From Pseudomonadota bacterium (GTDB lineage Bacteria > Desulfobacterota > Desulfobacteria > Desulfobacterales > JBDRRP01), in NCBI GenBank assembly GCA_043825735.1, contig JBDRRP010000044.1, forward strand, positions 1 to 63,740: a DNA stretch of 63,740 bases, written 5' to 3'. How positions within the stretch are numbered: the stretch's first letter is position 1; each line of letters begins with the position of its first letter. Made by a program: the position numbers. Shown here in pieces: positions 9,501-15,500 of this stretch.

Positions 9501-12500
9501 AAAGCCGGCGAAAATACTCCCCCGGCGAAAGGGTTGCGCTGAAAAGCACCACCGAACGGCAGCGCGACATGACCTGGGCCAGCTGCCGGGAAGGGTCGAG
9601 ACAAAAGAGCTTCACGACCAGGTCCTGCCCCTCGGCGCTGTAACAGGTCACGTAATCCGCGCCGTATTGATCGGCAACCCGAAGAAACCCCAAGGCCTTG
9701 AAAAAAAATGTCAAGAGCGCCTCGGCCTCGGGATTTCCAGCCGAGGCGGCCAGCCATTTTTCACTGGCGGTGCAAAATCGGCGCAGCAAGGGGTAGAGAT
9801 CTTCCGGCGGTTCGGACCGGGCCGTGCCTTCGGCGCCAGGGGCCAGGCGCTTTCGAGCGTCCAGCAACCATGCGTTGATCCGGCCCATGTGCCGGTAAAT
9901 GACAGGCTGGGCGGTTTTCAACGGCCGCCGCACGTCGAGAAGGGTCTTCTTGGACAGATCGGCCGAAAACATCTCCCGGGCGCGGTCCACGAGGTTGTGA
10001 GCTTCGTCCACCAGCAGCACCACCTGCCGCTGCTCCTCAGAGACGACGCCCTTGAGACTCACCCGGGGGTCGAAGGCGTAGTTGTAGTCGCAAACAATGC
10101 CGTCGGCCAGCGCCGCCAGTTCCAGCGACAGCGCAAACGGGCAAAGCGCGTTGGTCCGTGCGGCCGCTTCGATCACTTCCCGATCGATGATGTCGTGGTC
10201 GAAAAACACCTCACGGCCGCCGGCAAGACGGTCGAAATATCCGGCGGCAAAGGGACACGTCGCCGCCTGGCAGGCGCTCTCCGGCAGAAAACAGATCTTG
10301 TCCTTTGCCGTGAGCAGCACGGTCTTGAACCGAAGCCCGCCCTCGGACAGCCTTACCAGCGCATCCCGGGCGGCCCGCTGGCCGGTGGTGCGCGCTGTTA
10401 GATAAACCAGCGCCGTCGGCGGCTGCTCGAGCAGCGCCTTGATAGCGGCAAACAGCACCCCCATGGTTTTACCGATACCGGTTGCCGCCTGAATCATGCT
10501 CTGGCGCCCCTCGGCAATGGCGCGATAGACGGCAACCGCCACGGGTCGCTGACCGGGACGAAACCGGGTAAACGGAAATGCCAATTCTCGGATAGAGGCA
10601 TCGCGCAGGTGCGACCACGCCCCCATGCGCCTGGCCCATCGGGCATAGCGGTCCACCAGGTCGGTAAACACCCGCTCCAGGGCGGCAGCTGTCCAGGTCT
10701 CACGAAAGGTGCGGATCTCACCGGTGTCCACCTGAATGTAGGTGAGCTGCACATCGGTTTGCGCCAGCGCTTTTTCGTCCGCGTAAAGGTAGGCATAGAC
10801 CCGGGCCTGCCCCCAGTGCTCCGGGATCGCAGCCGGGTCCAGGTCATCGATATCCCGCGTGGTGGTCTTGATCTCTTCCACGATGGTGTGATCGGGGGCC
10901 TCGAAAACACCGTCCATGCGGCCGCTCACCCGCAGGATCGCCCCGTCGGCGGCAACCGTTTTCGCCACCGGGACTTCGGCACGGTACTCGGCCGGTCGGC
11001 GGCGCTGCAATTGCTGGTGCAGCCGGATGCCCTCCAGGGCGCGGCGGGAGCCGGCAAACTCAAAGCCCAGATCACCGCCGCCCAGAACAAAGCTCACCAG
11101 CGCCCGCACGGCCACCGGAATGGTGGGTGGCTCGAGAGGTGATTTTTCCAGCGTGATATCAACGGTGGATGCAGTCATGAACCATTTTCAATATCTGGTT
11201 ATGCTCAAAACTCAAGTAACAGTGCCGGTGCCGGTGCCTCGTATCTCCCGATGTTTTTGATCACCACGAAGTTCACGAAGGACGCAAAGGTTATCTAACC
11301 CACTCGTTTTTGGTTTTTCTTCGTGCCCTTCACGGGTGACTCTCAGTGCTGCGGATAAAGAGGATACCGGTGCCACCGCTTCATAATCAACCACAGCCCG
11401 GGCCAATACATTGAAATCATAGATCGTCCCGACGCTCAATGTTCTATGCCCATTGCCGCCGGACCGCCCACCTTAACGGCGAACGCCCAAAGGATCAAGA
11501 TACGGATAGGGTTTTAGGCGTAGTCATCGTTTGACAGCTGAGCGAATTTCTCCCTATTATGACCCGGTCTGAAGCCTCCGGAGCTGCGGACGGCATCGAA
11601 AGGTAGTTATCTCACGGGTTTTGCGCCAACCGGCCGAAAGGCCATATGAAAAGGAGCATCCCATGACCGCACTTCATCGCACCGTTTTTTTCCGGCACCA
11701 CACGGCGCTCGGCGCCACCATGGTACCGTTTGGCGGCTGGCAAATGCCTGTCCAGTATCCCGGCGGCATCATCCAGGAGCATCTGGCCACCCGGAAGGGT
11801 GCCGGTCTCTTCGATGTCTCCCACATGGGACGGTTCGTTCTTTCAGGAAAAGACGCCCTGCCCATGCTCCAGCACACCCTCACCAACAACGCGGCTGCCC
11901 TCGAAGTGGGCGAGAGCCACTACACGCTCATCCCCGATGCGAATGGCGGCGCCATTGACGATGCCTACCTGTACCGGTTTACCGCCGAGGCATACCTGCT
12001 GGTGGTCAACGCGTCCAACCGGGAAAAAGACTGGGCCCAACTGAGCTCCTTCACCGACCGCTTTCCCGACATGGAAATGACGGACCAGACCCTCGACATG
12101 GCCATGCTCAGCCTCCAGGGACCGGCGGCCAAAGAGATCCTGACCGGCATTCTCGACCCCGGCGCGCCGCTGCCCGATCCCATGCGCAACGCCCTGGGCA
12201 TCGCCCGCGCCGGAGATGCCGAAATCTGGATCGGCCGAACCGGGTATACCGGGGAGCCGCTGTGCTTCGAGCTGTTTTTCCAGGTCGCTCACGCCGACAC
12301 CCTGTGGCAGAAACTGCTGGATGCCGGCGCCGTGCCCGTGGGCCTGGGGGCTCGGGACACCCTGCGCCTGGAGGCGGCGCTGCCCCTGTACGGCCATGAA
12401 CTCGGAGACGATGCCGAGGGCCGTCCCATCCCCCTCTATGCATCGGGATTATCCCGGTTTGCCGTGAGCTTTTCACCCTTGAAAGGCGACTACATCGGCC

Positions 12501-15500
12501 GCTCGGCCCTGGCGCGTCAGTTCGCAGCGTTCAAAAAAATCCTCGATCGTGATTATTCAGCGGTCTCGGACCTGCCCCGGCGCATTCTCCCCTTCGTTCT
12601 GGAAGGCAAGGGCGTGGCCCGTGCCGGTTGTCCGGTGCTGAAAAATGGGGCGCCGGCCGGAGCCGTCACCAGCGGCACCATGGTTCCCTATTGGCAGTTT
12701 TCAGGAGAGGGCATCGCTTCGGCCATCACCGGTGAAAAAGCCATGCGGGCCGTGGGGCTGGCTCTGGTGGACAGCCACCTGGCCGATGGCGACCGGGTAG
12801 AGATCGATATCCGCGGGCGCCGGGTGCCGGCACTGCTGGTACCCCACCTGCTGCGCAGCGAGGCCCCGCCGTTTGCCCGCCCCATCACGTGTTACCAGCC
12901 GCAGAAATCCCCGGCCAGCCCCCCGCTGGTGGCCCGGGGATTCCAGGCCGCCGAGCGGCTGGTGGCCAATGCCGTGGAAAACCACCAGTGGCGACAGCGG
13001 GAATGCATCAACCTGATCCCCTCGGAAATGACCCCTTCGCGACTGGTGGCGATGCTGTCCATCACCGACCCGGTTGGGCGATATGCCGAGCATAAGCCGG
13101 TCAAGGCCTTTTGCGACAGTGAGGTGTTCTACTACCAGGGCACTCATTTTATCGCCGCCGTGGAAGCCGAGGTGCGCACCGAAATGGCCGCCTATCTCGG
13201 ATGCACCCAGGTGGAAACCCGACCCATCAGCGGACAGATGGCCAACATGGCCCTTTTCAGCGCCATGGTCGATCACCGCAACCGGGCCGATCGCAAGCGG
13301 GAGCAGGCACGGATGCAGCCGGTGATGAACCACCACATCATCCGCGGCGGCCACCTCAGTGCCCAGCCCATGGGCGCCTTGCGCGATTACGTGGCCCGCG
13401 ACCCTCGGACTGAAAAACCCGCCGTGGTGAATTTCCCCGTGCTCGCCGACAACCCCTACCAGATCGATATCGCCGCCTGCCGGCAGCTCATGGCCGAACA
13501 CCGCCCGGAGTTCATCATCCTGGGAAAAAGCATGATCCTTCACCGGGAACCGGTAGCAGACATCCGCGCCATCGTATCGGAGCTGGAACTGCCGGCCGTC
13601 ATCCTCTACGACATGGCCCACGTGCTCGGGCTGGTGGGCCCTCATTTTCAGCAGCCCTTCGCCGAAGGCGCAGATATCGTCACCGGATCCACCCACAAGA
13701 CATTTTTCGGCCCCCAGCGTGGCATCATCGCCGCCAACGTGACCGAGGCCGATTCGGCCTGGGAACTGTGGGAGGCCATCGGCCGTCGCAGTTTTCCGGG
13801 CAGCACCAGCAATCACCACCCGGGCACCCTGCTGGCGCTGCTCATGGCCCTTCACGAAATGAACACCTTCAAAGCCGACTATCAGCCGGCCGTCATTAAA
13901 AACGCCAAAGCATTTGCCGCCGCCCTGGCAGACCTGGGCATGACGGTGGCCGGCGACCCGGCCATCGGGTTCACCGAGACCCACCAGGTGATCCTCGAGG
14001 TCGGCTATGCCCGAGGCCCCGAGATCGCCCGCCGTCTGGAAGAAAACAACATCATCGTCAACTACCAGGCCACCCCGCAAGAGGAAGGATTCACCGCTTC
14101 GGGCGCCCTGCGGATGGGGGTTGCGGAGATGACCCGGTTCGGCATGGCCGAAGAAGACTTCCGGACGCTGGCCCAGCTTTTGAAAGACATTGTTGTCGAC
14201 GACCGCAGCGCTCGCGCGGCGGTGGCCGATTTCCGAAAACGCTTCCAGGACATGCGTTATTGCTTCGATACCGCCGCCGTGGAGCCATTGATCCAGAAAC
14301 TGCATCGACTGATATGACACAGCAGAAAAAAAAGCCGCCGCAACCCCTGAAAGGGGAATATCGGACCCTCAGGGTCCCTGTCGATCGGGTGGAAAAGGCC
14401 TCAGCAGCGGCGCCCCCGCTCATTGCAGAGGACATCCGCGTTCCGGAAACCATGAAATCGCAGATGGCCCGGCTCGATCTTACCGATCTCGATACCGATG
14501 ACGACGCCCGGCGACGGGAGACGGCCGTTGCCGAGACCGCGGCCCAGCAGACGCTGGTGGACTATTTTGAAGGGCGCAGTGTACTCACCGAAGCCCTCAT
14601 CGACGTCTACCTGGAAGAAACCCGCAACGCCCAGAGCAACGACATGCTGATATTGCGCTATCACCACCAGGGAAACCGGCCGCTGGAACAACTGATCACC
14701 GCCTGCATCGCACGCGATCCCACCAACAAGGGGCTGCTCTACGATCTGGCGCACCTGAGTCGGTTTATCGGCCAGACACTGCCGGTTATAGACCATTATT
14801 GCCGCGCCCTTATAATGGAAAGCGCATGGCCCCGGCTGAGGGCCCTGGCCGATGACATCTGCGACCACGGGCATTTGAGAACACCGGCGTCACGATCCCG
14901 GTTCCAGGAATTACTCCGAGACCACCCGGAAAAATGGCAGCTGGTAGACAACACCATGGCGCGACACGGCTGACGCCGCCTCGTGCCCTGAAGGAAGGCA
15001 CAAGATGAGTGAGATCCGGATGACCTGCGCCGTGCGTACGGACTATGACTGCGAGACCACCGGCCTGCCGGCAGAGCGGTGGGCGGAAGCGGTATTCACC
15101 TGTGGCGGGGAGGAACTGGTGATGGAGGTCAGCGTCGAAAACGATGTGATCGTCGCCATCATGGCCGGTGAATCCGCGATGTGGAAAGGCACTCTCAAAG
15201 GGCTCAAGGAACTTCTTGCCAAGGGCATTCAGCCGGTGGGCGTTTCCGGTAAGTAGCCGCAGCACTGAGTATGAACCACGAAGGCCACGAAGTGCACGAA
15301 GAAAAGCCAAAAAACAAGTGGGTTAGAAAACCTTCGTGAACTTCGTGGTAATCAAAAACATCGGGTGCTGTGAAGCACCGGCACGGCCACTTGAATTTTG
15401 TGCATAACCAGATTTCAGAATTGTTGAATCCCCGCATGGACGCAGGGCATTTTGAAACCGCCTGCTCCGAGAACCGCAGGCCCCGGAACGGGCTTTTTGA

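Follow-up and report, generated by a model that had tools for sequence, protein, structure and literature searches.

Why should a bacterium join the T-protein (GcvT) of the glycine cleavage system and a serine hydroxymethyltransferase (SHMT) on one chain, in a genome that also encodes both separately? We consider this question for a fusion gene in a window of 63,740 nucleotides, positions 1 to 63,740 of contig JBDRRP010000044.1 from a member of the Desulfobacterales. The genome-wide survey's note that pointed to this gene had listed a separate gcvTHP operon and two ordinary glyA genes, and we recover both: a complete gcvT operon on contig C108 (89107-98108, in the order lpd<, lrp>, gcvT>, gcvH>, gcvPA>, gcvPB>, lplA>, lipA) and two further SHMT homologues on contigs C92 and C53. 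The fusion sits apart from this operon and is therefore a second T-protein in that genome, with the association with glycine cleavage genes absent at its own locus. Canonical glyA is also present in all five carrier genomes tested, which makes the fused SHMT an extra, dedicated copy.

The ORF listing and translation of the window give one open frame of 884 aa that matches both Pfam families, so that GcvT and an archaeal-type SHMT do lie on a single chain as the note had it. Its Pfam figures (2e-71 for GCV_T and 1e-36 for SHMT) are essentially reproduced, at 4.8e-71 and 3.1e-36; the end that it gave for the feature, 14973, needs correcting, since the fusion stops at 14317 and 14973 is the end of the next ORF. 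The features are as follows.

11531..11560, + strand: sigma-70-like promoter candidate, TTGACA-18-TATTAT, 11/12, about 100 nt 5' of the start (consensus match only)
11652..11656, + strand: Shine-Dalgarno AGGAG, 6 nt upstream of the ATG (direct sequence reading)
11663..14317, + strand: fusion gene (P0001), 884 aa (ORF, translation, Pfam/NCBIfam; 119 full-length homologues at 62-90% identity)
11663..12847, + strand: GcvT half, residues 1-395 (Pfam, NCBIfam, alignments; TM 0.89 to 1woo)
12848..12952, + strand: linker, residues ~396-430, variable in sequence and of low pLDDT (119-member alignment, AlphaFold model)
12953..14314, + strand: SHMT half, residues 431-884 (Pfam, alignments; TM 0.85 to 4uqv)
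14314..14973, + strand: 219-aa ORF without a family, homologue found only in the congener (Pfam, NCBIfam, homologue comparison)
15005..15256, + strand: 83-aa ORF without a family, kept immediately 3' of the fusion in 14 other loci (Pfam, NCBIfam, locus comparison)

The ATG of the 219-aa ORF overlaps the TGA of the fusion (ATGA). For the 83-aa neighbour, the two relatives out of three that were first counted prove too few, given the 14 loci listed above. We found no glycine riboswitch in the window or in eight loci linked to the glycine cleavage system.

Is the N-terminal half a true T-protein? It matches GCV_T over residues 11-250, the folate-binding domain, and GCV_T_C over residues 353-394 (E 1.5e-11), the C-terminal barrel. 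The PF01571 score is 239.4 against a cut-off of 25.6, and the cut-offs of two NCBIfam GcvT equivalog models are passed as well (TIGR00528, 254.4 against 235.85; NF001567, 308.5 against 300). Invariant in 119 sequences are the GLGARDTLRLEA block, D99/D100 at the position of E. coli D97, and N116, R231, D232, R235 and E237, the last five of which we take to be conserved residues of the GcvT folate site. The likeness to GcvT thus covers equivalog score, catalytic Asp position and three-domain fold (target-normalised TM 0.82-0.90 to PDB 1woo from T. maritima, 1yx2 from B. subtilis and 3a8i, the E. coli T-H complex), and it extends to the operon partners gcvH, gcvPA and gcvPB; the differences are an extra 455-residue SHMT at the C-terminus and, relative to the B. 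subtilis protein, two small insertions near the C-terminal domain that appear as alignment gaps. According to its title, PDB entry 3a8k carries a mutation at D97 of the E. coli protein. Compared with the canonical GcvT of the same genomes, the fused T halves form a clade of their own and are 33-39% identical. With the T domain placed first, the N-terminus of the T-protein is free, and this region is reported in an excerpt of PMC7733448 to be necessary for action on H-protein. The survey had cautioned that this half may be of the demethylase type, a concern that the scores do not bear out: soxA reaches 94.1 against a cut-off of 1164, DmdA 35 against 410 and TMAO demethylase 118.7 against 1100. 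We rejected the GcvT-like C1-trapping domain of DMGO, SoxA, DmdA or TMAO demethylase as an identity for this half on the basis of these missed cut-offs and of its partner, which is a PLP enzyme.

The C-terminal half matches Pfam SHMT over residues 431-839 with a score of 125.3 against a cut-off of 27, and falls below the cut-off of the NCBIfam SHMT model (NF000586, 251.6 against 335). In a PDB search the best SHMT relative, in sequence and in fold, is the M. jannaschii enzyme (4uqv/4bhd, E ~3e-51), with E. coli SHMT (1dfo) at ~1e-23, and it is this closer match that justifies the archaeal-type label. The PLP lysine noted in the survey is indeed there (K679, in a GSTHKT motif), and the PLP- and amino-acid-binding residues mapped from E. 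coli SHMT (S35, Y55, E57, Y64, Y65, H126, D200, H203, H228, K229 and R363) are all kept and are invariant or nearly so among the 119 members. In the fusion's own numbering, the PLP set K679, D650, H564, H653 and H678 (E. coli K229, D200, H126, H203 and H228) is invariant, as are the carboxylate Arg R817 and the catalytic Glu and Tyr, E476 and Y491 (E. coli R363, E57 and Y65); Y490, next to Y491 and equivalent to E. coli Y64, is found at a level of at least 90%. Both active sites, T and SHMT, are in this sense invariant across the family. We assume that E57, Y64 and Y65 take part in the folate-dependent SHMT reaction; by its title, entry 1eqb carries a mutation at Y65.

The folate site of this half is different, and here a caveat of the survey is well founded. 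Two canonical folate contacts are changed, E. coli N347 to Gln (Q802, invariant) and H129 to Ala or Ser (A567, nearly invariant, with Ser in some stand-alone rows), and the sequence does read GGHLSAQ where the note had GGHLS-A in place of GGHLTHG. Together with two inserts, one of 7 aa following RYAEHK and one of 12 aa preceding GGHLS, A567 and Q802 are the hallmarks of the clade. Both the N and the H are retained in other archaeal-type paralogues from this order and in the genome's own GlyA. The M. jannaschii enzyme shares with the fusion GSTHKTFFGPQ, FPGxxSNHH and a Gln at the E. coli R235 position, and it retains GGHISH and the N347-equivalent Asn, against GGHLSA(S)Q, Gln and the two inserts in the fused clade. 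The N347 equivalent is a THF-binding residue by the title of Pai et al. 2009 as cited in PMC3697235, and because of these two substitutions folate use by the fused SHMT may differ. An excerpt of PMC3697235 describes the M. jannaschii enzyme as H4MPT-dependent, whereas the hosts of the fusion are bacteria and its partner half is a THF-type T-protein. In the tree the fused SHMT sequences form a clade of their own next to the other archaeal-type paralogues, one that occurs only in fused proteins with the exception of a few nested stand-alone rows, and in every fused locus the SHMT half is better conserved than the T half (59-70% against 46-65% identity).

How widespread is this arrangement, and does it belong with glycine cleavage? 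Among 201 sampled genomes of the order, 59 have a match at E=0, and adding four genes truncated at contig ends plus one form with a long linker brings the number to 64. This agrees with the proposal of presence in about a third of Desulfobacterales, but the family reaches far beyond the order: relatives occur in at least 639 stretches of a species-genome collection, the best 72 of which are labelled with many phyla, the fusion is also found on human-gut metagenome contigs, and in a further set of 152 loci, drawn from species genomes and metagenomes, 130 have both halves in a single frame. The T-protein/SHMT fusion is therefore real, conserved and much more widely distributed than Desulfobacterales, and our literature search found no published description of it. 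gcvH, gcvPA and gcvPB lie inside the fetched flank in 34 of the 130 fused loci; among these 34 are loci with the labels Spirochaetaceae, Pirellulales, Armatimonadetes and Syntrophus, as well as ten contigs from the human gut that carry the order fusion-gcvH-gcvPA-gcvPB. Of the 38 loci in the order set, 10 have the fusion adjoining gcvH, gcvPA, gcvPB, lplA/B, lipA and an Lrp regulator (in L049 and L056 as fusion-gcvH-gcvPA-gcvPB-lplA-lipA), an Lpd-like gene neighbours it in two more, and gcvPA lies within ~7 kb in 19 of 64 carrier genomes; in several operons the fusion occupies the usual place of gcvT. No glycine cleavage gene is nearby in 96 of the 130 fused loci and 26 of the 38 order-set loci. 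At a threshold of E<=1e-10, 17 of 59 carriers, the congener included, have no PF01571 match other than the fusion, which is thus the sole T-protein candidate there; all 17 have GDC-P. GDC-P is present in 57 of 59 carriers against 66 of 134 non-carriers, counts in which related genomes are not independent. Cross-phylum synteny and this sole-GCV_T status support a tie between the fusion and the glycine cleavage system far more strongly than the survey could.

The reading that we prefer, with a probability of roughly 0.55, is a bifunctional T-protein/SHMT in which locally recycled THF links aminomethyl-H-protein with the glycine/serine pair. The N-terminal half would transfer the aminomethyl group of lipoyl-H-protein to THF with release of ammonia, or run in reverse, and the C-terminal half, as a dedicated PLP-dependent SHMT, would move the one-carbon unit between methylene-THF and glycine/serine. 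With GcvH, GcvPA/PB and dihydrolipoyl dehydrogenase the sum would be 2 glycine + NAD+ <-> serine + CO2 + NH4+ + NADH, and since THF would be regenerated on the same polypeptide, only catalytic folate would be needed. Activity of both halves, serial use of one folate, flux direction and any channelling are what we infer here. The same net conversion, 2 Gly -> Ser + CO2 + NH3 + NADH with THF cycling from T-protein to SHMT and back, is known from plant mitochondria, where glycine decarboxylase is functionally coupled to SHMT in photorespiration; there the proteins are separate, and here they form one chain. The survey's note had instead equated the fusion with the last two steps of the reductive glycine route and a hand-off between its sites. 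These two ideas do not go together: the reverse T step and SHMT both consume methylene-THF on that route, so nothing is handed from one site to the other, and only the reaction 2 Gly <-> Ser + CO2 + NH3 involves a T/SHMT hand-off.

Fusion by itself could also accompany parallel use of the bulk methylene-THF pool, with both halves running in the same direction and the single chain providing only equal dosage and co-regulation, a possibility that we regard as real but unlikely. In a catabolic form serine would give glycine and methylene-THF, and glycine would give CO2, NH3 and a second methylene-THF, oxidised via the Wood-Ljungdahl methyl branch; in an assimilatory form, the reductive glycine route, both steps would consume methylene-THF. 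Synteny and co-occurrence fit this picture just as well, an excerpt of PMC7547702 documents the reductive glycine pathway in a sulphate reducer, the linker varies and is modelled with low confidence, and a complex test of the two halves gives weak support for a fixed interface. What it leaves unexplained is a separate SHMT clade, nearly confined to fusions, with invariant folate-contact changes and two inserts, and the retention of canonical glyA alongside. Moreover, the AlphaFold2 single-chain model (pLDDT 89) reaches a whole-chain pTM of 0.86, which suggests a defined domain packing. For a possible hand-over of methylene-THF between the T and SHMT sites, this pTM and the weak verdict of the complex test are the only structural hints.

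The folate-site changes also admit a different chemistry, in which the C-terminal half would be a folate-free PLP aldolase or transaldolase acting on serine or another beta-hydroxy amino acid, its formaldehyde trapped by THF in the GcvT-like domain with H-protein unneeded. N347 to Gln and H129 to Ala/Ser, invariant or nearly so in the clade, would suit it, as would the resemblance of the C-terminal two-thirds to L-threonine transaldolase (ObiH-type, 7k34, E ~1e-31) and to fluorothreonine transaldolase. SHMT-like transaldolases share the fold and do folate-independent chemistry after folate-site changes. Fluorothreonine transaldolase is itself a fusion. Its model, TIGR04506, is matched at 4.5e-42 with a score of 144.6, far under the cut-off of 650, and the fused SHMT keeps E57, Y64 and Y65, whose role in the folate-dependent reaction we assume. 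GcvT-like domains do trap formaldehyde in this way in dimethylglycine oxidase/dehydrogenase and sarcosine oxidase (PDB 1pj5/1pj6, 4pab, 5l46 and 1vrq), which by their entry titles also fuse a GcvT-type folate domain, with folate bound in 1pj6, 4pab and 1vrq, to a catalytic module whose C1 product it receives, and frames of ~815-830 aa that fuse GCV_T to an oxidase are common in these genomes. In those enzymes, however, the partner is an FAD oxidase, the GcvT-like domain is C-terminal and H-protein has no part, whereas the T half here scores as true GcvT, and the gcvH/gcvP operon link and sole-T-protein status in 17 genomes require H-protein-dependent activity; we consider this chemistry improbable. 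A role as loader of aminomethyl-lipoyl-H-protein for [FeFe]-hydrogenase maturation, in which SHMT and T-protein would make this carrier from serine and ammonium as the source of the H-cluster dithiomethylamine bridge, draws on a defined in-vitro maturation with SHMT, T-protein, H-protein, serine and NH4+ (an excerpt of PMC11736057). It is disfavoured to the point of being very hard to credit: of 201 genomes of the order, only 3 have a HydF (TIGR03918) score above cut-off, and the fusion is present in just one of them (G058), so that 58 of 59 carriers are without such a match.

Returning to the coupled T-protein/SHMT, we also entertain a bolder and rather doubtful version of it. Formiminotransferase-cyclodeaminase and DHFR-TS are bifunctional folate enzymes with site-to-site transfer, in which the cofactor can be held from one step to the next by a polyglutamate tail or along an electrostatic path; they too carry two folate-dependent steps per protein and are a model for the way the fusion might work, with unrelated folds and reactions. 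Based on the invariant N347 to Gln, the H129 to Ala/Ser change and the two clade-specific inserts, the fused SHMT might lack an independent pterin pocket, and the folate might stay on the same protein, for example with its tail anchored and its pterin head swinging from the T site to the PLP site and back. Combined with GcvH, GcvP and Lpd, it would make a natural five-activity machine that moves the C1 unit of aminomethyl-H-protein directly into serine, or in reverse, with no release of methylene-THF or formaldehyde. Such a machine, if it exists, would be the first natural case in which substrate channelling links the glycine cleavage system to SHMT.

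The fusion of a glycine-cleavage T-protein (GcvT, residues 1-395) with an archaeal-type SHMT (431-884) is encoded in one frame, with these features:

11663-14317, plus strand: fusion gene, one uninterrupted ORF, 884 aa when translated
6 nt before its ATG, plus strand: Shine-Dalgarno sequence AGGAG, read from the sequence
about 100 nt upstream of its start, plus strand: promoter-like site TTGACA-18-TATTAT, a consensus match
residues 11-250 of the product: GCV_T (Pfam, E 4.8e-71)
residues 353-394: GCV_T_C (Pfam)
residues 431-839: SHMT (Pfam, E 3.1e-36)

The genome-wide survey's note had proposed such a single-frame fusion, and the ORF and its domain matches bear it out; the gene end given there, 14973, is wrong, being that of the next ORF, and the fusion stops at 14317. 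The N-terminal half scores above the curated NCBIfam cut-offs for GcvT (TIGR00528, 254.4 vs 235.85; NF001567, 308.5 vs 300), and the C-terminal half falls under the SHMT cut-off (251.6 vs 335). The closest solved T-proteins are those of B. subtilis (1yx2) and T. maritima (1woo), and the closest solved SHMT is that of M. jannaschii (4uqv/4bhd, E ~3e-51, vs ~1e-23 for E. coli SHMT).

An AlphaFold2 model of the whole chain, built on an alignment of 119 homologues, reaches a mean pLDDT of 89.0 and a pTM of 0.86, and the latter suggests a defined packing of the two halves. The modeled T half superposes on 1woo (TM 0.89) and the SHMT half on 4uqv (TM 0.85); comparison of the model with solved structures found no solved chain that spans both. 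Confidence is low in the linker (~410-430), an insert at ~470-490 and the GGHLSAQP loop (562-569). The latter two are counterparts of SHMT dimer-interface elements, and a monomer model may leave them disordered for that reason. When the two halves are instead predicted as a complex, with our own alignment, the score is 0.49 (runs 0.49, 0.45, 0.56; best of three controls 0.00), with contact agreement of at least 57% and partner pLDDT of at least 89. Of 157 solved complexes, 116 pass the mark for such predictions, as do 2 of 215 mismatches, but passing scores of 0.60 or less come from only 18 of the 157 solved complexes and from both of the passing mismatches; the prediction tool rates the result as weak support.

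The architecture is common in the order. We find an E=0 match in 59 of 201 sampled genomes, to which four with the gene cut by contig ends and one with a 975-aa frame (G160:C9:74429-77269, locus L060, with ~90 extra residues between the halves) add up to 64 of 201, consistent with the 45 of 151 counted earlier. The fusion family extends beyond the order. Searching proteins by a word index gives 5925 with E<=1e-20 among 8000 scored candidates, and the best 120 of these are nearly all 882-887 aa long and 62-90% identical to the fusion, named, where at all, only 'aminomethyltransferase' or 'GcvT'. At least 643 pattern matches, at least 639 of them encoding a relative, come from a scan of one genome per species. 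The best 72 loci of that scan (52-66% identical, all MAGs) carry the labels Acidobacteriota, Thermoleophilia, Spirochaetaceae, Gemmatimonadota, Chloroflexota, Planctomycetota/Pirellulales, Armatimonadetes, Syntrophobacter, Syntrophus, Desulfobulbaceae, Xanthomonadales and an Olavius symbiont, and a metagenome scan adds 80 loci, human-gut contigs included. In a library of representatives at 50% identity, full-length fusions reach down to 36-44% identity (P0293, P0298, P0301, P0305 and others), and motifs differ in the most divergent of them. No cultured carrier was identified in the protein search or the species-genome scan, where named records are MAGs throughout.

For 40 genomes of the order we took the gene with ~8 kb of flanking sequence at either end, called and clustered the ORFs, and named recurrent clusters by Pfam. 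Glycine cleavage system (GCS) genes stand beside the fusion in 10 of the 38 loci where it was recovered, the neighbors being GcvH, GcvPA, GcvPB, an LplA/B-type lipoate ligase, LipA and an Lrp/AsnC regulator. Two loci (L049, L056) read fusion-gcvH-gcvPA-gcvPB-lplA-lipA, with the fusion in the position of gcvT, and two (L047, L069) read fusion-lrp-gcvT-gcvH-gcvPA-gcvPB; an Lpd-like gene adjoins the fusion in two more. With coordinates combined, gcvPA lies within ~7 kb of the fusion in 19 of 64 carrier genomes. Blastx of 152 loci from species genomes and metagenomes against a GCS reference set finds 130 fused in a single stop-free frame, 9 interrupted by a change of frame or by stops, 10 with the SHMT part only (6 of them within ~200 nt of a contig start) and 3 with the T part only (2 at a contig end). 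The flanks of 34 of the 130 fused genes hold gcvH/gcvPA/gcvPB, and ten gut contigs read fusion-gcvH-gcvPA-gcvPB, three of them with an lpd-like gene too.

Across the 201 genomes, a family scan finds 17 of 59 carriers whose sole GCV_T-domain match (E<=1e-10) is the fusion (the congener G062, and G001, G003, G022, G030, G035, G054, G075, G077, G094, G103, G109, G110, G121, G155, G165 and G178), all 17 of which have a P-protein. P-protein is present in 57 of 59 carriers and in 66 of 134 genomes without any fusion part; related genomes in these counts are not independent. All five carriers checked also have a canonical bacterial glyA (E ~1e-165). From the synteny, the sole-GCV_T genomes, the P-protein counts and the glyA genes we predict that the N-terminal half is a working T-protein, probably the only one in many genomes, and that the SHMT half would be an additional, dedicated enzyme distinct from the housekeeping SHMT. 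The window's own genome has, in addition to the fusion, a complete lpd-lrp-gcvT-gcvH-gcvPA-gcvPB-lplA-lipA cluster on another contig. Many genomes of the order (such as G127, G171, G107, G199 and G159) hold up to 8 GCV_T-domain genes with frames of ~810-830 aa, like the dimethylglycine/sarcosine oxidase architecture, a number unexpected in anaerobes. Neither the window nor 8 GCS-linked loci contain a glycine riboswitch at the Rfam gathering score, and the stretch 11100-11750 has none at E<=1. A cobalamin riboswitch (RF00174, 88.2 bits) lies ~9 kb from the fusion of G178 (L050, 17432-17637, minus strand).

Residues of the SHMT half were mapped by aligning it with Salmonella SHMT 3gbx, in which residue numbers differ by 3 from those of E. 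coli. Eleven mapped residues are kept (E. coli number, then fusion number: S35=S454, Y55=Y474, E57=E476, Y64=Y490, Y65=Y491, H126=H564, D200=D650, H203=H653, H228=H678, K229=K679, R363=R817), all invariant or nearly so among 119 sequences. Four changes mark fusion-type SHMTs and are absent from the order's other archaeal-type paralogues and from the GlyA of the same genome: H129 becomes A (S in some), N347 becomes an invariant Q, 7 residues are inserted after RYAEHK, and a basic insert of 12 precedes GGHLS. H129 is a folate-contact position of canonical SHMT. Asn341 of bsSHMT, the equivalent of N347, is a THF-binding residue according to the title of a 2009 paper by Pai et al. that PMC3697235 cites.

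FastTree places the fusion-type SHMTs in one group (support 100) apart from the paralogues, in a tree of 71 rows that leaves out 25 of unclear state and every second fused row, and whose deeper forks stay below 95. At every fused locus, identity to the window's protein is higher for the SHMT half (59-70%) than for the T half (46-65%). Six stand-alone rows, five of them P0162-like and the sixth P0133, branch within the group, and their place among fused rows suggests a later, secondary fission. True stand-alone members of the clade are the P0162-like proteins and loci L157, L158, L208 and perhaps L212 (outside the tree); most of the halves that seem to stand alone are contig-end cuts (G047, G139 and records named 'partial'). 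At locus L149 (1028-5045) a T-protein belonging to the fusion clade stands alone; it is 54% identical to the T half, is directly followed by gcvH-gcvPA-gcvPB, and would represent either the state before fusion or a descendant that lost its SHMT half. Further stand-alone archaeal-type SHMTs (L074-L084, in G156, G109, G030, G195, G028, G071, G107, G147 and G126) fall into one class at 36-39% identity to the fused half and another at 29%; the latter lacks the usual S35, Y55 and H228 and adjoins beta-eliminating lyase genes. The gene context of these paralogues shows no GCS link, the neighbors being aminotransferases, Lrp and beta-eliminating lyase.

Within the window, the fusion lies between a Rad3/DinG-like helicase and two small family-less ORFs with a hybrid histidine kinase; an intron-domain match lies farther along:

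8782-11178, minus strand: 798-aa Rad3/DinG-type helicase with an N-terminal PD-(D/E)XK nuclease domain, divergent, upstream of the fusion
14314-14973, plus strand: 219-aa ORF, no family, its ATG overlapping the fusion's TGA (ATGA)
15005-15256, plus strand: 83-aa ORF downstream of the fusion
15519-19358, plus strand: 1279-aa hybrid sensor kinase (dCache, HAMP, PAS, HisKA, HATPase, two receiver domains, Hpt)
58421-58556, minus strand: group II intron catalytic domain match (RF00029; Rfam 46.9 bits, gathering score 40)

Because its start overlaps the fusion's stop, the 219-aa ORF appears to be translationally coupled to it; a homologue is found only in the congener (L034). The 83-aa ORF has no Pfam or NCBIfam match and no usable Protein Atlas relative. 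Its homologues (E 1e-28 to 1e-42) immediately follow the fusion, in the same orientation, at 14 other loci (L034, L035, L042, L048, L052, L058, L062, L092, L094, L155, L205, L221, L224, L231); within one sub-clade it is a possible small partner of the fusion. The helicase cluster recurs directly upstream of the fusion in L034 and L035; in L040 and L042 it occupies another position in the flank. The kinase, downstream of the small ORFs, is kept in L035. Two 151-nt contigs of a sediment metatranscriptome are identical to 13166-13316 and 13411-13561 in the SHMT half, a weak sign of transcription since DNA carry-over is possible in this one RNA library; three other runs hold only short stretches of relatives.

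We come to mechanism with a reading to which we give a probability of roughly 0.55: a bifunctional T-protein/SHMT on one chain, serving a glycine cleavage (or synthase) system as its T-component. The T step would be aminomethyl-lipoyl-H + THF <-> methylene-THF + NH3 + dihydrolipoyl-H, and the SHMT step methylene-THF + Gly <-> Ser + THF. Run in series these would give aminomethyl-H + Gly <-> Ser + NH3 + reduced H, with THF catalytic, and with the P- and L-proteins 2 Gly + NAD+ <-> Ser + CO2 + NH4+ + NADH; flux could go either way, the sequence giving no direction. The survey's note had placed a hand-off between the sites in the reductive glycine route, where it does not hold up because the reverse T step and SHMT both use methylene-THF; a hand-off exists only in glycine-to-serine (or serine-to-two-glycine) conversion. 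The T-then-S order leaves the N-terminus of the T-protein free, and PMC7733448 reports this region as required for opening the H-protein.

The synteny with GCS genes would fit equally well if both halves drew in parallel on the bulk folate pool, carrying serine and glycine catabolism into the Wood-Ljungdahl methyl branch or serving assimilation; this is possible if rather unlikely, and it leaves the specialised SHMT clade unexplained. The changed folate residues agree with another proposal, by analogy with dimethylglycine oxidase, that the C-terminal half would be an SHMT-like aldolase and the GcvT-type domain would trap the formaldehyde it releases. This conflicts with the T half's score as a true GcvT, with the gcvH/gcvP operons and with the retention of E57, Y64 and Y65, and we consider it improbable. 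Finally, the fusion could load aminomethyl-H-protein for [FeFe]-hydrogenase maturation, a task for which SHMT with T-protein is the defined in-vitro system (PMC11736057); we reject this role as extremely improbable, since HydF passes its cut-off in just 3 of the 201 genomes and a single one of these carries the fusion.

Returning to the T-protein/SHMT on one chain, its two enzymes are textbook knowledge, and what appears new is their undescribed, widespread joint architecture and the distinct SHMT subfamily. Full-text search found no paper describing the fusion (paywalled literature and supplements lie outside it, and domain-architecture databases may list the combination), and the whole text of a 2026 paper on the reductive glycine pathway of Desulfobacterota contains neither 'GcvT' nor 'fusion' nor 'fused'. 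Databases name the protein only 'aminomethyltransferase/GcvT', so that reconstructions of glycine, serine and one-carbon metabolism from genomes miss a second, specialised SHMT, and may also overlook the fusion as the only T-protein in many genomes. Research on the reductive glycine pathway is affected for sulphate reducers, syntrophs, soil Acidobacteriota/Thermoleophilia and gut bacteria labeled Oscillospiraceae. The clade-specific changes at folate contacts offer concrete residues for testing. If the two sites do share a folate, the fusion would add a new example to studies of how cofactors pass from one active site to another, and would offer a natural, ready-made design for the GCS plus SHMT step that synthetic formate- and CO2-assimilation pathways balance by hand.
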